Assembly: GCF_058153355.1 (NCBI RefSeq)
Contig: NZ_CM177019.1
Length of the DNA stretch: 64,000 bases
Reading direction: 5' to 3' (one strand)
Position 1 is the first letter of the stretch. Each line of letters begins with the position of its first letter. Of this stretch, positions 3,296 through 61,607 are shown piece by piece. The notes under the pieces were generated by a model that was given only the letters and a program-made list of their open reading frames with translations, was not told where the DNA came from and made no database searches. A program made the position numbers and the translations under genes.

Positions 3296-6219
3296 ATGCC
3301 CCGCAGCACCTGGTTCAAAGCATTATTGTTGTTTGTTGCCCTTTGGGCACCCTTAAGTCAGGCAGAAACGGGATGGCAGCCGATTCAGGAAACCATCCGT
3401 AAAAGTGATAAAGATAACCGCCAGTATCAGGCTATACGTCTGGATAACGGTATGGTGGTTTTGCTGGTTTCTGACCCGCAGGCGGTTAAATCGCTCTCGG
3501 CGCTGGTGGTGCCCGTTGGGTCGCTGGAAGATCCCGAGGCATACCAGGGGCTGGCACATTACCTTGAACATATGAGTCTGATGGGTTCGAAAAAGTACCC
3601 GCAGGCTGACAGTCTGGCTGAATACCTCAAAATGCACGGCGGCAGCCACAATGCCAGCACGGCACCGTATCGCACGGCTTTCTATCTGGAAGTTGAGAAC
3701 GACGCCTTACCCGGTGCGGTAGACCGCCTGGCCGATGCTATTGCTGAACCCTTGCTCGACAAGAAATACGCCGAACGTGAGCGTAATGCGGTGAACGCTG
3801 AATTAACCATGGCGCGTACGCGTGATGGGATGCGCATGGCACAGGTCAGCGCAGAAACCATTAACCCGGCACACCCAGGTTCAAAGTTTTCTGGTGGTAA
3901 CCTCGAAACTTTAAGCGATAAACCCGGCAATCCGGTACAGCAGGCGCTGAAAGATTTCCACGAGAAATATTACTCTGCCAATCTGATGAAGGCGGTTATC
4001 TATAGCAAGAAGCCGCTACCGGAGCTGGCGAAGATGGCTGCTGATACTTTCGGTCGCGTGCCGAACAAAGAGAGCAAAAAACCGGAAATCACTGTGCCGG
4101 TAGTCACCGACGCGCAAAAGGGCATTATCATTCATTACGTCCCGGCGCTGCCGCGTAAAGTTCTGCGCGTTGAGTTTCGCATCGATAACAATTCAGCGAA
4201 GTTCCGTAGTAAAACGGATGAATTGATTACCTATCTGATTGGTAATCGCAGCCCAGGTACACTTTCTGACTGGCTGCAAAAGCAGGGATTAGTTGAGGGC
4301 ATTAGCGCCAATTCCGATCCTATCGTCAACGGCAACAGCGGCGTATTAGCGATCTCTGCGTCTTTAACCGATAAAGGTCTGGCGAATCGCGATCAGGTTG
4401 TGGCGGCCATTTTTAGCTACCTCAATCTGTTACGCGAAAAAGGGATTGATAAACAATACTTCGATGAACTGGCGAATGTGCTGGATATCGACTTTCGTTA
4501 TCCGTCAATCACCCGTGATATGGATTACGTCGAATGGCTGGCAGATACCATGATTCGCGTTCCTGTTGAGCATACGCTGGATGCAGTCAATATTGCCGAT
4601 CGGTACGATGCTAAAGCAGTAAAAGAACGCCTGGCGATGATGACGCCGCAGAATGCGCGTATCTGGTATATCAGCCCGAAAGAGCCGCATAACAAAACGG
4701 CTTATTTTGTCGATGCTCCGTATCAGGTCGATAAAATCAGCCCACAAACTTTCGCTGACTGGCAGAAAAAAGCCGCCCACAAACTTTCGCTGACTGGCAG
4801 AAAAAAGCCGCCAATATTGCGCTCTCCTTACCGGAGCTTAACCCTTATATTCCTGACGATTTCTCGCTGATGAAGTCAGAGAAGAAATACGACCATCCAG
4901 AGTTGATTGTGGATGAGGCGAATCTGCGCGTGGTGTATGCGCCGAGCCGTTATTTTGCCAGCGAGCCTAAAGCCGATGTCAGCCTGATTTTGCGTAACCC
5001 GAAAGCCATGGACAGCGCCCGCAATCAGGTGATGTTTGCGCTTAATGATTATCTTGCCGGACTGGCGCTTGATCAGTTAAGCAACCAGGCGTCGGTTGGT
5101 GGCATAAGTTTTTCCACCAATGCTAACAACGGCCTTATGGTTAATGCCAATGGTTACACCCAGCGCCTGCCGCAGCTGTTCCAGGCTCTGCTGGAGGGCT
5201 ACTTTAGCTATACCGCTACGGAAGAGCAGCTTGAGCAGGCGAAGTCCTGGTATAACCAGATGATGGATTCCGCAGAAAAGGGCAAAGCGTTCGAGCAGGC
5301 GATTATGCCCGCGCAGATGCTCTCGCAAGTGCCGTACTTCTCGCGAGATGAACGGCGCAAAATTTTGCCTTCAATCACTTTGAAAGAGGTGCTGGCCTAT
5401 CGCGACGCCTTAAAATCAGGGGCTCGACCAGAGTTTATGGTTATTGGCAACATGACCGAAGCCCAGGCAACAAAGCTGGCACGCGATGTGCAAAAACAGT
5501 TGGGCGCTGATGGTTCGGAGTGGTGTCGTAACAAAGATGTCGTGGTCGATAAAAAACAATCCGTCATCTTTGAAAAAGCCGGTAACAGCACCGACTCCGC
5601 ACTGGCAGCGGTATTTGTACCGACTGGCTACGATGAATACACCAGCTCAGCCTATAGCTCTCTGCTGGGGCAGATCGTACAGCCGTGGTTCTACAATCAG
5701 TTGCGTACCGAAGAACAGTTGGGCTATGCCGTGTTTGCGTTTCCAATGAGCGTGGGACGTCAGTGGGGCATGGGCTTCCTGTTGCAAAGCAATGATAAAC
5801 AGCCTTCATTCTTGTGGGAGCGTTACAAGGCGTTTTTCCCAACCGCAGAGGCAAAATTGCGGACGATGAAGCCAGAAGAGTTTGCGCAAATCCAGCAGGC
5901 GGTAATAACCCAGATGCTGCAGGCACCGCAAACGCTCGGCGAAGAAGCATCGAAGTTAAGTAAAGATTTCGATCGCGGCAATATGCGCTTCGATTCGCGT
6001 GATAAAATCGTGGCCCAGATAAAACTGCTGACGCCGCAAAAACTTGCTGATTTCTTCCATCAGGCGGTGGTCGAGCCGCAAGGCATGGCTATTCTGTCGC
6101 AGATTTCCGGCAGCCAGAACGGGAAAGCCGAATATGTGCATCCTGAAGGCTGGAAAGTGTGGGAGAACGTCAGCGCGTTGCAGCAAACAATGCCCCTGAT
6201 GAGTGAAAAGAATGAGTGA
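3296..6219 (+). pseudogene. ptrA: Protease III (pitrilysin) gene disrupted by a 35-bp tandem duplication; reads as two ORFs 3296..4870 and 4870..6219
   Basis: N-terminal ORF has a signal peptide and the HxxEH zinc motif (HYLEHM); it terminates 20 codons after the duplication; the second ORF continues in another frame; removing one 35-bp copy gives a single 962-aa ORF. Confidence 0.85.
4741..4810 (+). repeat. Perfect tandem duplication, 2 x 35 bp (cccacaaactttcgctgactggcagaaaaaagccg), inside ptrA
   Basis: Positions 4741-4775 and 4776-4810 are identical; the length is not a multiple of 3. Confidence 0.95.
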
Positions 6220-11584: not shown

Positions 11585-11850
<266 letters not shown>

Positions 11851-22622: not shown

Positions 22623-23066
22623 TTAACCCTGCTTTGCCGCCGCGATAATCGCCTCGCTTAACGCATTCAACCCCTGACTGCGAGAGGCGCTAAGTTGCGC
22701 ACGCAATCCCAGCTCATCAAACAATGCCAGCGGCGACTGTGCTTGCAATTCGGCGGCGGTTTTCCCCTCAACGGCAGTCAACAACACCGCCAGCAGGCCG
22801 CGCACAATGCGTCCTTCGCTGTCGCCAAAGAAATGCATCGTGCCGTTTTCAGCCACGGTATACCCCAGCCAGACGCGGTTTTCGCATCCGGCAATCTCTT
22901 TAGCCTGCGCTTTTAACTCGTCTGGCAAAGCTGGAAGCTGTTTCCCCAACATAATTAGCTGACGATATTTGTCTTCCCATTGAGTCAACGGCGCGAAAGT
23001 TTCGTGTAACGTCTTTACGGTAACGGTTGTGCCGAACGGGTGTCCGGCGTATTGCTGGTTCGTCAT
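22623..23066 (-). CDS. csdE: Sulfur acceptor protein CsdE (SufE-like)
   Basis: 147 aa; start overlaps the csdA stop. Confidence 0.9.
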
Positions 23067-24271
23067 TAATCCACCAATAATTCCAGCGCGCGGTCAACGG
23101 CGTTCACCAGCGCATCCACATCATTCTTTGTATTATATGGCGCAAACGAGGCGCGCAGAGTGCCGGTTACGCCTAATTCTGCCAGTAGCGGCTGCGCGCA
23201 ATGCTGCCCGGCGCGCAGGGCAATACCGTACTCTGCCAACAGCGTCACCATATCGCTGTGATGAACTCCCGCGAAATCAAAGGCCAGCAGGCTGGAATCC
23301 TGGCAGCGGAATGAACGAAAACCTGGACGTTTCGTCAGCGCATCTTCCGCCAGCGTTGCTAAGCTACGGCTCCAGCTTTCGGCCTGGTTGATATCGTAAT
23401 CTGCCAGCCATTCCAGCGCCGCGCTTAATCCTATGACACCAGCGACATTTGGCGTTCCAGCTTCCAGTTTCCACGGCGCAGATTGAGTCGTGAAGCCGTC
23501 AAAACTCACTTCGTGAACCATTTTGCCGCCGCCCAGCCAGGGCGACATCGCTTCCAGCAGTTCTGATTTGCCATACAGCACGCCGATACCTGTCGGGCCA
23601 TACAGTTTGTGACCTGAAAAAGCATAGAAATCAATATCCAGTTGCTGAACATCCGCGGGGAAATGCACCGCCCCCTGAGCACCATCAACCATCACCACCA
23701 TCCCGGCTGAATGAGCAAAGGTAATCGCTCGCGCCAGATCCGGGCAACCGCCAGTAACGTTCGACATCTGACCCAACGCCAGAATCCGACTACGAGGTGT
23801 GATCAGTTCTGGCAACAAATCGACATCCGGCAGTCGCTGTGCATTCAGCGGCAATTTCACCACTTTGGCTCCAGTTTGTTGGGCGACCATCAGCCAGGGG
23901 ACGAGGTTGGCGTGGTGCTCTGCCACACTGACAATAATTTCATCGCCCGGTTGCAGACGCGGACGCGCATAGCATTGTGCCACCATGTTGATGGATTCAG
24001 TGGTGCCGCGCGTCCAGACGATATTTTTGTCATCTGATGCATTCAGTAATTGCGCCACTTTCTCCCGCGCAGCTTCATAACGCGCGGTCAGGCGTTGGGC
24101 TTCGGCAAACTGGCTGCGATGGACGTTTCCGGCGCTCAGGCTGTAAAACTGTCGGGTGGCTTCAACCACGGCTTCAGGTTTAAGCGCGGTCGCGGCGCTG
24201 TCGAGATAGACGCCCGCATCCTGTAGCGCGGGAAACTGGGCGCGAAACTGCGCGGGATTAAAAACGTTCAT
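23066..24271 (-). CDS. csdA: Cysteine sulfinate desulfinase / cysteine desulfurase CsdA
   Basis: 401 aa from [16 protein letters not shown]; class V aminotransferase with PLP lysine in FSGHKLYGP; ORF track extends 12 codons upstream. Confidence 0.92.
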
Positions 24272-35743: not shown

Positions 35744-35797
35744 ATGCGCTGATGTGATAATGCCGGATACGACGTTTGCGGCGTATCCGGCACGCCG

Positions 35798-42910: not shown

Positions 42911-43082
42911 GACTCTGTAGGAGATCGCCAGGAAATAAGCGAATACTTAAAAAGATAAGAATCGTTATTTTCATTTAAAATCAATATATTGCTTGTTAAT
43001 TCTTAACTTTCATATGAAATTTTCCTTAAGGCATTGTCTGTAAGCGCCTTGTAAGACTTCGCGAAAAAGACGATTCTATCTT

Positions 43083-43449
43083 CGTCGACAGGGAGTCAGA
43101 CAACGAAGTGAACATCAGGATGATGACACTTCTGAAGGACACACCAGGAGGGTGTTTCAGGGAAAGGCTTCTGGATGAAGCGAAGAGGATGACGCAGGAC
43201 GCGTTAAAGGACACCTCCAGGATGGAGAATGAGAACCGGTCAGGATGATTCGGTGGGTCAGGAAGGCCAGGGACACTTCAGGATGAAGTATCACATCGGG
43301 GTGGTGTGAGCAGGAAGCAATAGTTCAGGATGAACTATTGGCCGCAAGGCCAGAGGAAAAGTTGTTAAGGATGAGCAGGGAGCAACAAAAGTAGCTGGAA
43401 TGCTGCGAAACGAACCGGGAGCACTGTGAATACAGTGCTCCCTTTTTTT
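43083..43449 (+). ncRNA. csrB: CsrB, the CsrA-sequestering sRNA
   Basis: About 367 nt with many repeated GGA-containing motifs (caggatg, aaggaca, aggatga); terminator ccgggagcactgtgaatacagtgctccc plus T run; location between syd and yqcC. Confidence 0.92.
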
Positions 43450-43494
43450 ATTCCTGCTATCCTTCGCGGCAGTTTTTCTTATTGAGGTTGCTTT

Positions 43495-43824
43495 ATGACC
43501 ACTCATGACCGCGTTCGTCTCCAGTTGCAGGCGCTTGAAGCGTTACTACGTGAACATCAGCACTGGCGAAACGATGAACCCCAGCCGCATCAATTTAACA
43601 GTACCCAACCGTTCTTTATGGACACCATGGAACCACTGGAGTGGTTGCAGTGGGTGCTGATCCCGCGAATGCACGATTTGTTAGATAACAACCAGCCGTT
43701 ACCGGGCGCTTTTGCCGTTGCACCCTATTATGAAATGGCGCTGGCGACGGACCACCCGCAACGCGCGCTTATTCTGGCTGAGCTGGAAAAACTGGATGCT
43801 CTTTTTGCGGATGATGCGAGCTAA
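43495..43824 (+). CDS. yqcC: DUF446 protein YqcC
   Basis: 109 aa. Confidence 0.85.
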   Translation: MTTHDRVRLQLQALEALLREHQHWRNDEPQPHQFNSTQPFFMDTMEPLEWLQWVLIPRMHDLLDNNQPLPGAFAVAPYYEMALATDHPQRALILAELEKLDALFADDAS

Positions 43825-44606
43825 TGCTGGAAATACTCTATCAGGATGAATGGCTGGTTGCGGTAAATAAACCCTCCGGCTGGCTGGTTCACCGCAGCTG
43901 GCTGGATCGCGACGAGAAAGTAGTGGTCATGCAAACCGTGCGTGACCAGATAGGCCAGCATGTTTTTACTGCTCATCGTCTGGACCGACCAACTTCTGGT
44001 GTGTTGTTGATGGGATTATCCGGCGAGGCCGGACGGCTGCTGGCACAACAGTTTGAACAGCACCAAATCCAGAAACGTTACCATGCGATTGTGCGCGGCT
44101 GGTTGATGGAAGAAGCAGTTCTGGATTATCCACTGGTGGAAGAACTGGACAAAATCGCTGATAAATTCGCCCGCGAAGATAAAGGTCCACAGCCAGCGGT
44201 GACACATTATCGCGGTCTGGCGACCGTAGAAATGCCTGTAGCGACCGGACGTTACCCGACTACGCGCTACGGTCTGGTGGAACTGGAGCCGAAAACAGGA
44301 CGCAAGCATCAGCTCCGTCGCCATCTTGCCCACTTGCGCCATCCGATTATTGGCGACAGCAAACATGGTGATTTACGTCAGAATCGTAGCGGTGTTGAAC
44401 ATTTTGGCCTTCAGCGGTTAATGCTGCATGCCAGTCAGTTGTCATTGACACATCCATTTACTGGCGAGCCGCTGACTATTCACGCGGGCCTGGACGACAC
44501 CTGGATGCAGGCGTTATCACAATTTGGCTGGCGTGGTCTGCTTCCTGAAAATGAAAGGGTTGAGTTCAGCGCGCCATCGGGTCAGGATGGAGAGATAAGT
44601 TCCTAA
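43824..44606 (+). CDS. truC: tRNA pseudouridine(65) synthase TruC
   Basis: 260 aa; RluA-family motif HRLDRPTSG. Confidence 0.92.
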
Positions 44607-44623
44607 TCCAGGGAGAAAACGGT

Positions 44624-45073
44624 ATGGCGGAAATTGGTATTTTTGTGGGCACCATGTACGGAAATTCACTGTTAGTGGCGGAAGAAGCGGAAGCAATTCT
44701 GACCGCGCTGGGCCACAAAGTAACGGTATTTGAAGATCCTGAATTAAGTGACTGGCTGCCCTATCAGGATAAGTTCGTTCTGGTGGTTACGTCCACGACC
44801 GGGCAGGGCGACCTTCCTGATAGCATTGTGCCGCTCTTTCAGGGAATTAAAGATACCCTGGGCTTCCAGCCGAATCTGCGTTATGGCGTGATTGCGCTCG
44901 GCGACAGTAGTTATGTGAATTTCTGCAATGGCGGCAAACAGTTCGATGCCTTGTTGCAGGAACAGAGCGCTCAGCGAGTTGGCGAAATGCTGTTGATTGA
45001 CGCCAGTGATAACCCGGAACCGGAAACGGAATCAAATCCGTGGGTCGAACATTGGGGCACGCTGTTGTCCTGA
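44624..45073 (+). CDS. yqcA: Flavodoxin-like protein YqcA
   Basis: 149 aa, FMN-binding flavodoxin fold. Confidence 0.88.
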
Positions 45074-52418: not shown

Positions 52419-53720
52419 ATGGCGCAATTCTACTCTGCAAAACGACGCACGACGACGCGTCAGATCATAACTGTTTCAGTCAACGACCTCGACTCTTTTG
52501 GTCAGGGCGTGGCACGACATAACGGCAAAGCGTTATTTATTCCTGGATTATTGCCACAGGAAAACGCGGAAGTTACTGTTACTGAAGATAAAAAACAGTA
52601 CGCCCGCGCTAAAGTCGTGCGCCGGTTAAGCGATAGCCCGGAACGCGAAACGCCACGCTGCCCTCATTTTGGCGTATGCGGTGGCTGTCAGCAACAACAC
52701 GCCAGCGAGGATTTACAGCAGCGAAGCAAAAGTGCGGCACTCGCCCGATTAATGAAACACGAAGTCTCTGAAGTGATCGCCGATGTTCCCTGGGGCTATC
52801 GCCGTCGCGCGCGTTTAAGTTTGAACTACTTACCGAAAACACAGCAACTTCAGATGGGGTTTCGCAAAGCTGGCTCCAGTGACATTGTCGACGTTAAACA
52901 ATGCCCCATTTTAGTGCCCCAACTTGAAGCATTGCTGCCCAAAGTCAGGGCATGCCTGGGCAGCTTACAAGCTATGCGCCATCTTGGTCATGTTGAACTG
53001 GTACAAGCAACCAGCGGTACGCTGATGATTTTGCGCCATACCGCACCGCTAAGTTCGGCAGATCGCGAAAAACTGGAACGCTTTTCGCATTCTGAAGGCC
53101 TGGATCTGTATCTCGCCCCCGATAGTGAGATACTCGAAACCGTCTCTGGTGAGATGCCCTGGTATGACTCAAACGGGTTGCGCTTAACTTTTAGCCCGCG
53201 CGATTTTATTCAGGTCAATGCGGGTGTGAACCAAAAAATGGTAGCGCGTGCGTTGGAATGGCTGGATGTACAACCTGAAGATCGCGTACTGGATCTGTTC
53301 TGCGGTATGGGCAACTTTACACTGCCATTGGCGACACAAGCTGCCAGTGTGGTGGGTGTAGAAGGCGTTCCGGCGCTGGTTGAAAAAGGCCAGCAGAATG
53401 CGCGTCTTAATGGCTTACACAATGTGACGTTTTATCACGAAAATCTTGAAGAAGATGTCACAAAGCAGCCGTGGGCGAAAAACGGCTTCGATAAAGTGTT
53501 GCTGGACCCGGCGCGAGCAGGTGCCGCAGGTGTTATGCAGCAAATTATAAAACTGGAACCTATTCGTATAGTTTATGTATCCTGTAATCCTGCAACGCTG
53601 GCTCGGGATAGCGAAGCGTTATTAAAAGCAGGATATACCATTGCGCGACTGGCGATGCTGGATATGTTCCCACACACGGGACATCTGGAATCGATGGTAC
53701 TTTTCTCGCGCGTTAAATAG
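52419..53720 (+). CDS. rlmD: 23S rRNA (uracil1939-C5)-methyltransferase RlmD
   Basis: 433 aa; TRAM domain, Fe-S cysteines and SAM-dependent methyltransferase fold. Confidence 0.93.
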
Positions 53721-53767
53721 TTACGATTTGCCGATTTCGGCAGGTCTGGTCCCTAAAGGAGAGGACG

Positions 53768-56002
53768 ATGGTTGCGGTAAGAAGTGCACATATCAATAAG
53801 GCTGGTGAATTTGATCCGGAAAAATGGATCGCAAGTCTGGGTATTACCAGCCAGAAGTCGTGTGAGTGCTTAGCCGAAACCTGGGCGTATTGTCTGCAAC
53901 AGACGCAGGGGCATCCGGATGCCAGTCTGTTATTGTGGCGTGGTGTTGAGATGGTGGAGATCCTCTCGACATTAAGTATGGACATTGACACGCTGCGGGC
54001 GGCGCTGCTGTTCCCTCTGGCGGATGCCAACGTAGTTAGCGAAGATGTGCTGCGTGAGAGCGTCGGTAAGTCGGTCGTTAACCTTATTCACGGCGTGCGT
54101 GATATGGCGGCGATCCGCCAGCTGAAAGCGACGCATACTGATTCTGTTTCCTCCGAACAGGTCGATAACGTTCGCCGGATGTTATTGGCGATGGTCGATG
54201 ATTTCCGCTGCGTGGTCATCAAACTGGCAGAGCGTATTGCTCATCTGCGCGAAGTAAAAGACGCGCCGGAAGATGAGCGCGTACTGGCGGCAAAAGAGTG
54301 CACCAATATCTACGCGCCGTTGGCGAACCGTCTTGGGATTGGGCAACTGAAATGGGAGCTGGAAGATTACTGCTTCCGTTATCTCCACCCGACCGAATAC
54401 AAACGCATCGCAAAACTGCTGCATGAACGCCGTCTCGATCGCGAACACTATATCGAAGAGTTTGTCGGCCATCTGCGCGCTGAGATGAAAGCTGAAGGCG
54501 TTAAAGCTGAAGTGTATGGCCGTCCGAAACACATCTACAGTATCTGGCGCAAAATGCAGAAAAAGAACCTCGCCTTCGATGAGCTGTTTGATGTGCGTGC
54601 GGTACGTATTGTCGCCGAGCGTTTACAGGATTGTTATGCCGCACTGGGGATAGTGCACACTCACTATCGCCACCTGCCGGATGAGTTCGATGATTACGTT
54701 GCGAACCCGAAACCGAACGGTTATCAGTCTATTCATACTGTGGTGCTGGGGCCGGGCGGTAAAACCGTTGAAATCCAAATCCGCACCAAACAGATGCATG
54801 AAGATGCAGAGTTAGGTGTTGCTGCGCACTGGAAATATAAAGAAGGCGCGGCAGCTGGCGGTGCACGTTCGGGACATGAAGACCGAATTGCCTGGCTGCG
54901 TAAACTGATTGCGTGGCAGGAAGAGATGGCTGATTCCGGCGAAATGCTCGACGAAGTACGCAGCCAGGTCTTTGACGACCGGGTGTATGTATTTACGCCG
55001 AAAGGTGATGTCGTTGATTTGCCTGCGGGATCAACGCCGCTGGACTTCGCTTACCACATCCACAGTGATGTCGGACACCGCTGCATCGGGGCAAAAATAG
55101 GCGGGCGCATTGTGCCGTTCACCTACCAGTTGCAGATGGGCGACCAGATTGAAATTATCACCCAGAAACAGCCGAACCCCAGCCGTGACTGGTTAAACCC
55201 AAACCTCGGTTACGTCACAACCAGCCGTGGGCGTTCGAAAATTCACGCCTGGTTCCGTAAACAGGACCGTGACAAAAACATTCTGGCAGGGCGGCAAATC
55301 CTTGACGACGAGCTGGAACATCTGGGGATCAGCCTGAAAGAAGCAGAAAAACATCTGCTGCCGCGTTACAACTTCAATGATGTCGACGAGTTGTTGGCAG
55401 CGATTGGTGGCGGGGATATCCGTCTCAATCAGATGGTGAACTTCCTGCAATCACAATTTAATAAACCGAGTGCCGAAGAGCAGGATGCCGCCGCGCTGAA
55501 GCAACTTCAGCAAAAAAGCTATACGCCACAAAACCGCAGTAAAGATAACGGTCGGGTGGTGGTTGAAGGTGTCGGCAACCTGATGCACCACATCGCGCGT
55601 TGCTGCCAGCCGATTCCTGGAGATGAGATTGTCGGCTTCATTACCCAGGGGCGCGGTATTTCAGTACACCGCGCCGATTGCGAACAATTGGCGGAACTGC
55701 GCTCCCATGCGCCAGAACGCATTGTTGACGCGGTATGGGGCGAGAGCTACTCCGCCGGATATTCGCTGGTGGTCCGCGTGGTGGCTAATGATCGTAGTGG
55801 GTTGTTACGTGATATCACGACCATTCTCGCCAACGAGAAAGTGAACGTGCTTGGCGTTGCCAGCCGTAGCGACACCAAACAGCAACTGGCGACCATCGAC
55901 ATGACCATTGAGATTTACAACCTGCAAGTGCTGGGCCGCGTGCTGGGTAAACTCAACCAGGTGCCGGATGTTATCGACGCGCGTCGGTTGCACGGGAGTT
56001 AG
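53768..56002 (+). CDS. relA: GTP pyrophosphokinase ((p)ppGpp synthetase I) RelA
   Basis: 744 aa. Confidence 0.95.
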   Translation: MVAVRSAHINKAGEFDPEKWIASLGITSQKSCECLAETWAYCLQQTQGHPDASLLLWRGVEMVEILSTLSMDIDTLRAALLFPLADANVVSEDVLRESVGKSVVNLIHGVRDMAAIRQLKATHTDSVSSEQVDNVRRMLLAMVDDFRCVVIKLAERIAHLREVKDAPEDERVLAAKECTNIYAPLANRLGIGQLKWELEDYCFRYLHPTEYKRIAKLLHERRLDREHYIEEFVGHLRAEMKAEGVKAEVYGRPKHIYSIWRKMQKKNLAFDELFDVRAVRIVAERLQDCYAALGIVHTHYRHLPDEFDDYVANPKPNGYQSIHTVVLGPGGKTVEIQIRTKQMHEDAELGVAAHWKYKEGAAAGGARSGHEDRIAWLRKLIAWQEEMADSGEMLDEVRSQVFDDRVYVFTPKGDVVDLPAGSTPLDFAYHIHSDVGHRCIGAKIGGRIVPFTYQLQMGDQIEIITQKQPNPSRDWLNPNLGYVTTSRGRSKIHAWFRKQDRDKNILAGRQILDDELEHLGISLKEAEKHLLPRYNFNDVDELLAAIGGGDIRLNQMVNFLQSQFNKPSAEEQDAAALKQLQQKSYTPQNRSKDNGRVVVEGVGNLMHHIARCCQPIPGDEIVGFITQGRGISVHRADCEQLAELRSHAPERIVDAVWGESYSAGYSLVVRVVANDRSGLLRDITTILANEKVNVLGVASRSDTKQQLATIDMTIEIYNLQVLGRVLGKLNQVPDVIDARRLHGS

Positions 56003-56097
56003 TCTTACATAGCTGGATATGGCGTCAGCCGTATCCAGCGATATCTTTTACTCGAAGGTATTACACCTGACAGACCCGCAATTTTCAGGACATTCTA

Positions 56098-56889
56098 ATG
56101 AATCAAATCGACCGTTTGCTCACTATTATGCAGCGTCTTCGCGACCCGGAAAACGGCTGCCCGTGGGATAAAGAGCAGACATTTGCCACCATTGCACCTT
56201 ACACCCTTGAAGAAACCTACGAAGTGCTGGACGCCATCGCCCGTGAAGATTTTGACGATCTGCGCGGTGAGCTCGGCGATCTATTGTTTCAGGTGGTGTT
56301 TTACGCGCAAATGGCTCAGGAAGAAGGGCGCTTTGATTTTAATGATATCTGCGCCGCGATTAGCGATAAGCTAGAACGTCGCCATCCACATGTTTTTGCA
56401 GGCAGTTCTGCCGAAAACAGTAATGAAGTGCTTGCCCGTTGGGAGCAAATCAAAACCGAAGAGCGCGCGCAGAAAGCGCAGCATTCGGCGCTGGACGATA
56501 TTCCTCGTAGTTTACCGGCTTTAATGCGTGCGCAAAAAATCCAGAAACGTTGCGCCAACGTTGGCTTCGATTGGACGACGCTTGGTCCGGTAGTCGATAA
56601 AGTCTACGAAGAGATCGACGAGGTGATGTACGAGGCGCGGCAGGCTGTTGTCGACCAGGCTAAACTGGAGGAGGAAATGGGTGACCTGCTGTTTGCCACG
56701 GTCAACATGGCCCGCCATTTAGGGACAAAAGCAGAGATTGCACTACAAAAAGCCAATGAAAAATTCGAGCGCCGTTTTCGCGAAGTGGAGCGTATTGTTG
56801 CCGCGCGTGGACTGGAAATGACAGGTGTTGACCTCGAAACAATGGAAGAAGTCTGGCAACAGGTAAAACGGCAGGAAATTGATCTCTAA
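56098..56889 (+). CDS. mazG: Nucleoside triphosphate pyrophosphohydrolase MazG
   Basis: 263 aa from MNQIDRLLTIMQRLRDPENGCPWD; starts only 95 bp after the relA stop. Confidence 0.93.
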   Translation: MNQIDRLLTIMQRLRDPENGCPWDKEQTFATIAPYTLEETYEVLDAIAREDFDDLRGELGDLLFQVVFYAQMAQEEGRFDFNDICAAISDKLERRHPHVFAGSSAENSNEVLARWEQIKTEERAQKAQHSALDDIPRSLPALMRAQKIQKRCANVGFDWTTLGPVVDKVYEEIDEVMYEARQAVVDQAKLEEEMGDLLFATVNMARHLGTKAEIALQKANEKFERRFREVERIVAARGLEMTGVDLETMEEVWQQVKRQEIDL

Positions 56890-57101
56890 GGGAATTACGT
56901 GGTCAAGCGCGATTTGTGTCATTTTTTAAATGACAAGCGCTTGATTTGCGTCAAAAACATTTACCCCAAAGGGGCTATTTTCTCACTCCTGATTTCAATA
57001 GTGCGCTGGCGAAGAGGAGGGATAATGAAAGTTTGTGGCACAGGTCATGTTCGGGTATACTGCTTTCCCGTCCTGGTTATTCCATCGTCTTTTCAACCTA
57101 A

Positions 57102-58754
<1,653 letters not shown>

Positions 58755-60181: not shown

Positions 60182-61607
60182 TAATGCCGATCAGTTAAGG
60201 ATCAGTTGACCGATCCAGTGGCTGTGTAAGAATCCGGAAACGCTCACTTGTTTCCGGATTTTTTTATGCACATTGGACAGGCTCTTGATCTGGTATCCCG
60301 TTACGATTCTCTGCGTAACCCACTGACTTCTCTGGGGGATTACCTCGACCCCGAACTCATCTCTCGTTGCCTTGCCGAATCAGGTACTGTAACGCTACGC
60401 AAGCGCCGTCTTCCCCTCGAAATGATGGTCTGGTGTATTGTTGGCATGGCGCTTGAGCGTAAAGAACCTCTTCACCAGATTGTGAATCGCCTGGACATCA
60501 TGCTGCCGGGCAATCGCCCCTTCGTTGCCCCCAGTGCCGTTATTCAGGCCCGCCAGCGCCTGGGAAGTGAGGCTGTCCGCCGCGTGTTCACGAAAACAGC
60601 GCAGCTCTGGCATAACGCCACGCCGCATCCGCACTGGTGCGGCCTGACCCTGCTGGCCATCGATGGTGTGTTCTGGCGCACACCGGATACACCAGAGAAC
60701 GATGCAGCCTTCCCCCGCCAGACACATGCCGGGAACCCGGCGCTCTACCCGCAGGTCAAAATGGTCTGCCAGATGGAACTGACCAGCCATCTGCTGACGG
60801 CTGCAGCCTTCGGCACGATGAAGAACAGCGAAAATGAGCTTGCTGAGCAACTTATAGAACAAACCGGCGATAACACTCTGACGTTAATGGATAAAGGTTA
60901 TTACTCACTGGGACTGTTAAATGCCTGGAGCCTGGCGGGAGAACACCGCCACTGGATGATACCTCTCAGAAAGGGAGCGCAATATGAAGAGATCAGAAAA
61001 CTGGGTAAAGGCGATCATCTGGTGAAGCTGAAAACCAGCCCGCAGGCACGAAAAAAGTGGCCGGGACTGGGAAATGAAGTGACAGCCCGCCTGCTGACCG
61101 TGACGCGCAAAGGAAAAGTCTGCCATCTGCTGACGTCGATGACGGACGCCATGCGCTTCCCCGGAGGAGAAATGGCGGATCTGTACAGTCATCGCTGGGA
61201 AATCGAACTGGGATACAGGGAGATAAAACAGACGATGCAACTGAGCAGGCTGACGCTGAGAAGTAAAAAGCCGGAGCTTGTGGAGCAAGAGCTGTGGGGT
61301 GTCTTACTGGCTTATAATCTGGTGAGATATCAGATGATTAAAATGGCGGAACATCTGAAAGGTTACTGGCCGAATCAACTGAGTTTCTCAGAATCATGCG
61401 GAATGGTGATGAGAATGCTGATGACATTGCAGGGCGCTTCACCGGGACGTATACCGGAGCTGATGCGCGATCTTGCAAGTATGGGACAACTTGTGAAATT
61501 ACCGACAAGAAGGGAAAGGGCCTTCCCGAGAGTGGTAAAGGAGAGGCCCTGGAAATACCCCACAGCCCCGAAAAAGAGCCAGTCAGTTGCTTAACTGACT
61601 GGCATTA
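60182..61607 (+). mobile_element. IS4 insertion sequence, complete (1426 bp) with terminal inverted repeats
   Basis: Left end taatgccgatcagttaagg and right end ccttaactgactggcatta are inverted repeats; flanked by direct repeats cagccttcgggctg at 60168-60181 and 61608-61621; joining the flanks gives aaaaatgccagccttcgggctggcatttttt. Confidence 0.9.
60266..61594 (+). CDS. insG: IS4 transposase (DDE family)
   Basis: 442 aa from [16 protein letters not shown]; enclosed by the IS4 terminal repeats. Confidence 0.9.

Follow-up and report, generated by a model that had tools for sequence, protein, structure and literature searches.

The 95 bp between relA and mazG in the 64-kb stretch of DNA analysed here (the window) are an ordinary mazEF-free relA-mazG allele, common in E. 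coli. Such an arrangement is already known from the literature, so that it carries little weight as a discovery, and it is likewise known that mazEF is an accessory, horizontally moving module. What is useful here are the frequencies of the two alleles (81.4% with mazEF and 18.5% without), their exact boundaries, and the indication that the mazEF-free, or empty, allele is ancestral and holds a REP-type hairpin, not a scar. We consider it very probable that the account given below is correct as a whole, i.e. that this is the ordinary ancestral mazEF-free allele, that the two alleles are swapped by recombination, and that mazG is most likely expressed from a relA-mazG bicistron.

The relA-mazG interval and its K-12 counterpart

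Gene order in the window is that of K-12: barA (- strand), rlmD, relA, mazG, pyrG and eno. relA (GTP diphosphokinase; 53768-56002, + strand, 744 aa), taken from the open reading frame (ORF) list, matches the NCBIfam equivalog NF008124 over its full length (1678 bits) and ends in a TAG stop at 56000-56002. The intact mazG (nucleoside triphosphate pyrophosphohydrolase; 56098-56889, + strand, 263 aa) matches TIGR00444 over its full length (416 bits), and its Shine-Dalgarno sequence is the AGGA at 56087-56090, 7 nucleotides 5’ of the ATG. The spacer between the two genes (56003-56097, + strand), which constitutes the mazEF-free or “empty-site” allele, is exactly 95 bp long; this distance between the relA stop and the mazG start had been given in the first-pass annotation of this DNA, and is borne out by both the ORF coordinates and the NCBIfam matches. 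An 82-codon mazE is too long for such a spacer. The same annotation had reported that no ORF of the window resembles MazE or MazF, and we reached the same result using MazE and MazF sequences translated from the record of the K-12 derivative DH1 as tblastn queries against all six frames of the 64 kb: neither a MazE antitoxin (AbrB/MazE fold, PF04014; best E = 0.90) nor a MazF/PemK endoribonuclease (PF02452; best E = 0.37) was found in the window. The imperfect palindrome that had been noticed in the interval was also confirmed, at 56012-56039.

In the RefSeq annotation of DH1, the order is relA-mazE-mazF-mazG, as had been correctly stated for K-12, and relA and mazG are separated by a spacer of 731 bp. 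The first-pass annotation had suggested that an alignment with this interval would locate the boundaries of the missing segment and any scar. We aligned the window with three empty-allele E. coli and DH1. The alleles part at the first base 3’ of the relA stop codon and rejoin about 42 bp 5’ of the mazG ATG, with clear common sequence starting from the AGGT at 56056. Between these two points, the window contains an allele-specific segment of about 53 bp that includes the hairpin and has no K-12 counterpart (56003-56055, + strand, its left edge directly after the relA stop), versus about 690 bp in K-12 that comprise the mazE promoter region, mazE and mazF. Nothing in the window corresponds, in this alignment, to the autoregulated mazE promoter/operator that lies downstream of relA in K-12 (AAATTTGCTCGTATCTACAATGTAGATTGATAT…). 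The mazG leader that follows (56056-56097, + strand, …CACCTGACAGACCCGCAATTTTCAGGAC…) is common to both alleles, being conserved in E. albertii as well as in K-12, the window and the other E. coli with an empty allele. The boundaries were thus located, and no excision scar was seen. Judged from these alignments, the window and K-12 carry alternative alleles of a replacement-type polymorphism, not an insert facing a clean empty site or a scar.

Distribution and ancestry of the two alleles

A survey of the locus across E. coli, also suggested in the first-pass annotation, was carried out on 5,426 complete genomes. A 697-bp query spanning the K-12 insert detected the K-12-type mazEF segment in 4,419 of them (81.4%), and an 81-bp query made of the window’s junction and hairpin, i.e. 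most of the spacer, detected the empty allele in 1,006 (18.5%), each matching over the whole query, in 304 cases with an identity of at least 99%. The two counts add up to 5,425 genomes holding the locus, so that the two alleles split the collection exactly. Strain 042 carries the empty allele and is annotated with relA followed by mazG, as are other empty-allele examples; ATCC 25922 is also among the matches, and the spacer of E. coli WP8-S18-ESBL-07 is identical to that of the window over all 95 bp. One of the few partial matches to the K-12 mazEF segment is E. coli SW07163 (NZ_CM129852.1, ~1018132-1019058), where the segment is covered at 56% in two places and where the locus may be interrupted or rearranged.

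We also searched representative genomes with the window’s MazG and retrieved 80 Enterobacterales loci, from Escherichia, Citrobacter, Salmonella, Klebsiella, Enterobacter, Kosakonia, Pantoea, Erwinia, Pectobacterium, Serratia and other genera. At every one of these loci where both genes could be placed, mazG is immediately preceded by relA, most spacers measure 43-140 bp, and a MazE or MazF match between relA and mazG at E ≤ 1e-3 was obtained at none of the 80. REP-like palindromes (GTAGGCCGGATAAGGCG…) fill the spacer in Citrobacter, Klebsiella, Salmonella, Enterobacter and Leclercia. The Citrobacter gillenii spacer is also 95 bp long; its first palindrome, GCCGGATAAGGCGT-GCCGCCATCCGGC, aligns with the window’s hairpin and is followed on its 3’ side by the same (A/G)ATATC. 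Two species representatives labelled E. coli, SCPM-O-B-8794 (relA 92% identical) and E69 (relA 96%), carry the 95-bp empty allele as well. Because the 80 loci are without MazE/MazF, because the C. gillenii palindrome aligns with that of the window and because divergent Escherichia share the 95-bp allele, relA-mazG without mazEF is the ancestral and most widespread enterobacterial arrangement, and mazEF a derived insertion confined to the neighbourhood of E. coli.

These results bear on two claims of the first-pass annotation. The view that mazG is here deprived of its usual upstream partners turns out to be K-12-centric, the adjacency of relA and mazG being the ancestral and most widespread state. 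The proposal that this genome never had mazEF holds for the type of allele, which is free of mazEF in 80 of 80 species and has a hairpin similar to the C. gillenii REP, but is less certain for the lineage, which has mazEF-positive nearest relatives and may have re-acquired the empty allele by recombination (see below). K-12 is thus the derived state at relA-mazG. Roughly one-fifth of E. coli genomes, and apparently all other enterobacterial genera sampled, have no mazEF at this locus, and caution is warranted when mazEF phenotypes or mazEF-linked mazG regulation are extrapolated from K-12.

A number of spacers in the outgroup set are occupied differently. In E. albertii NBRC 107761, i.e. DSM 17582 (locus L007, 2240-2500), the spacer measures 261 bp and retains two stretches known from K-12, one of about 30 bp from the mazE promoter region (AAATTTGTTCGTGTCTACAAGTAGATTGA, 27/30 identical) and one of about 25 bp from the sequence 3’ of mazF, while REP/BIME-like palindromes have replaced its interior. 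It has the look of a genuine scar left by deletion of mazEF, in which case the cassette would once have been at the locus there too, or would have been exchanged with E. coli. Superficieibacter sp. 1612_C1 (locus L020, 1566-2500) has a parD/parE pair in the spacer (Pfam 1e-18 and 1e-11). The spacer of Buttiauxella agrestis (locus L044, 713-2497) holds Hcp, a DUF4225 protein and a small membrane ORF, and that of S. electus (locus L018, 1551-2500) holds a membrane ORF of ~112 aa which, compared by eye and unaligned, is like the Buttiauxella agrestis one. Small accessory modules have landed repeatedly in the relA-mazG spacer.

History of the locus in this lineage

Compared kb by kb with E. coli E400634, most of the 64-kb window is 98-100% identical, with divergent patches in between, and on this ground we rejected its assignment to a non-coli Escherichia. 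Most E. coli are not close to it: over either of the 24-kb stretches compared, the best complete E. coli match reaches 96.8-98.6% and none reaches 99%. The patches that diverge from E400634 include 4001-5000, 23001-24000 and 43001-45000, at 92.9%, 94.3% and about 96% per kb, respectively; within relA, at 54703-54991, nine substitutions private to the window fall at multiples of 3 and are presumably third-codon and synonymous. Such patches point to import from divergent Escherichia. Inside ptrA (3296-6219), the window has a perfect 35-bp tandem duplication at 4740-4809 (GCCCACAAACTTTCGCTGACTGGCAGAAAAAAGCC) that is missing from the E400634 ptrA; its second copy was read for 26 bases, as far as 4800. 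The resulting frameshift divides pitrilysin into two ORFs, of 524 and 449 aa, which reflects either a pseudogene or an error in the sequence. An IS4-family transposase ORF (60248-61594; NCBIfam NF033592, 9e-91) separates eno from the TPM-domain genes; E400634 and WP8-S18-ESBL-07 have no insertion there.

Closest to the window around the spacer are nine complete genomes of the E400634 cluster, which are 99.7% identical to it in mazG-pyrG. All three that were examined carry mazEF, as does the near-identical AP025754.1. The window’s exact MazG protein occurs in 713 blocks, and those of its contigs that were examined all carry mazEF. Site by site, the window follows the E400634-cluster background as far as 55840 and returns to it at 56124; in between, positions 56003-56096 are the empty allele, identical to that of a distant empty-allele strain. 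The allele difference therefore lies on a tract with at most ~350 bp of flank, which indicates that the alleles are exchanged by homologous recombination. Between K-12 and the E400634 cluster, the mazEF insert differs by 1.2% (9/732 sites), relA by 3.0% and mazG by 4.5%; the common ancestry of the cassette is therefore younger than that of its flanks.

The direction of the exchange in this lineage admits two readings. The ancestor shared with the E400634 cluster may have had mazEF, which the window’s lineage then lost secondarily by importing the empty allele from another E. coli, on a recombination tract running roughly from 55841 to 56135-56195. We give this course of events a nearly even chance. 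It agrees with the 98-100% per-kb and 99.7% mazG-pyrG identities to relatives that, where examined, are mazEF-positive, and with a spacer of a distant allele type set in cluster background on both sides. It also agrees with the junction variants of the E400634 cluster, which are found only in 12 genomes of the local cluster and make mazEF look resident there, and with the many other divergent, recombinant-looking patches of the window. However, these 12 genomes share identical 271-bp junctions in spite of flanks that are 1-1.8% apart, and a recent spread of the mazEF tract among them would explain this equally well. Moreover, no exact donor or relative of the window’s junction tract was found among complete genomes (best 98.4% for 55590-56150 and 98.9% for 55560-56002), and the argument rests on local similarity, which is not genome phylogeny. 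Even if secondary loss did occur, the sequence is still an ordinary empty allele and its history alone differs. A more specific version, which we put forward tentatively, is that a resident mazEF addiction module was cleanly removed by a very short recombination tract importing the ancestral REP-bearing allele, the hairpin of which then sets the relA:mazG expression ratio. If true, this would be a natural case of a toxin-antitoxin module purged by allelic replacement, not by decay.

Loss by another route, i.e. a precise excision or deletion of mazEF de novo from a K-12-like allele with a scar left behind, was one of the two origins proposed in the first-pass annotation, and was not borne out. 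It accounts for an absent module between two intact flanking genes, but nothing specific speaks for it. The spacer contains about 53 bp, hairpin included, that are foreign to K-12, at the place where K-12 has its ~690 bp; the mazE-promoter and mazF-downstream remnants expected of a deletion are missing from it; a true scar of this kind, that of E. albertii DSM 17582, looks quite unlike it; and the same 95-bp allele is shared by 1,006 E. coli genomes and extends to divergent Escherichia. We therefore regard excision as highly improbable and, going by the alignments, as effectively refuted. Collapse of the mazEF region as an artefact of assembly or sequencing, to which the duplication breaking ptrA lends some colour as another oddity in the window, has a negligible probability, the spacer being base-for-base identical to the allele of hundreds of independently finished genomes and the allele-specific hairpin being a feature that would not arise from an artefact.

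The spacer hairpin, mazG transcription and known systems

The hairpin sits 9 nucleotides 3’ of the relA stop (56012-56039, + strand). It is a REP-type palindrome, GCTGGATATGGC-GTCA-GCCGTATCCAGC, with a 12-bp stem including one G-U pair and a 4-nucleotide loop, and is followed by a T-rich tail, GATATCTTTT (56040-56049, + strand). Folding of the spacer yields -33.2 kcal/mol, against -16.3 ± 2.8 for shuffled sequences (z = -6.0). When eight distinct sequences are compared, in-register pairing covers 95.8% of cells, versus 25-42% with the partner slid. One compensatory pair, U-A to C-G, is seen in a divergent Escherichia, and four pairs have a one-sided change, three to a G-U wobble and one from U-G to C-G. 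These data lend modest support to a conserved structure, eight sequences being a small and related sample. Rfam, in E-value mode, returned no family match on 55900-56200.

The palindrome is extragenic and imperfect, has GCCGGAT-type arms that are degenerate at one pair, and has related copies within the 64 kb. The arm motif has 9 matches in the window against 1.0 expected, and these include two intergenic palindrome pairs, one after recD (11702/11719, spanning 11702-11731; GTCGGATAAGGCG…CGCCGCATCCGAC) and one after fucO (35762/35779, spanning 35762-35791; GCCGGATACGACG…CGGCGTATCCGGC), both of which are of the same family as the relA-mazG hairpin. Because the motif recurs in this way, the hairpin is one of the genome’s REP-type palindromes. 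REP elements affect mRNA stability and attenuation. The hairpin is a candidate relA 3’-end attenuator or mRNA stabiliser.

In K-12, mazEF is in an operon with relA and is transcribed together with relA and mazG (PMC7167474; PMC5120126); for co-transcription of mazG with mazEF, PMC5120126 in the relevant passage cites Gross et al. 2006. The transferable cassette consists of a promoter and the toxin-antitoxin ORFs and has no terminator, so that the downstream gene is co-transcribed (PMC5120126). In K-12-type E. coli, such a cassette of ~690 bp (mazE promoter, mazE and mazF) takes the place of the ~53-bp hairpin segment, and both alleles segregate in E. coli and are exchanged by homologous recombination via the conserved relA and mazG flanks. 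Since no mazE promoter is present in the empty allele, mazG would most likely depend on the relA promoters for its transcription, in a bicistron with relA, and would be free of MazE-MazF autoregulation. Without this promoter and this autoregulation, it is reasonable to infer that transcription of mazG is altered. The hairpin may act here as a partial terminator or as a 3’-end stabiliser of the relA mRNA. A terminator pattern scan flags it (12 pairs, 7 of them G-C, with GATATCTTTT as the tail), but the T run begins 6 nucleotides past the stem and is only 4 long. As hairpin and tail fit the terminator pattern, read-through could be low and mazG might use an unrecognised promoter. A sigma-70 scan of 53000-57200 gave no + strand site upstream of mazG and none in 55700-57200, a weak negative because the known K-12 mazE promoters are themselves only loosely matched by the scan.

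The window’s locus can be compared with four known systems. Firstly, the K-12 relA-mazEFG operon shares with the window its flanking genes, the position of the relA stop and the mazG leader of ~42 bp, but has the autoregulated mazE promoters, mazE and mazF where the window has its REP-type hairpin. Secondly, many strains are without mazEF, e.g. UTI89, and relA-mazG is there an undisturbed bicistronic operon, according to the review by Fraikin, Goormaghtigh and Van Melderen 2020, which cites earlier surveys (PMC7167474); CFT073 is without a classic mazF (PMC7232551). As in UTI89, relA is directly followed by mazG in the window, with no toxin-antitoxin pair, and nothing substantive sets the two apart, although the genes on either side of the spacer in the window belong to a less common background, the closest complete relatives of which are mazEF-positive. 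Thirdly, toxin-antitoxin sites are known to be occupied alternatively: mazEF insertion is probably independent of function, Salmonella has parDE in the relA-mazG spacer, and REP can occupy toxin-antitoxin insertion sites, as at folA-apaH, where ccd in O157:H7 stands against REP (all PMC7167474). The likeness lies in a single site holding either REP or a small cassette; the cassettes and loci are others, and the window itself is without a cassette. Finally, the hairpin resembles the REP/BIME elements of enterobacteria in being an intergenic, imperfect palindrome of ~28 bp just after a stop codon, with GC(C/T)GGAT…ATCC(G/A)GC arms, in having related copies elsewhere in the window, and in the palindromes found in the same spacer of Citrobacter, Klebsiella and Enterobacter. 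It differs from them in its degenerate arms, GCTGG/CCAGC instead of GCCGG/CCGGC, and in being a single unit.
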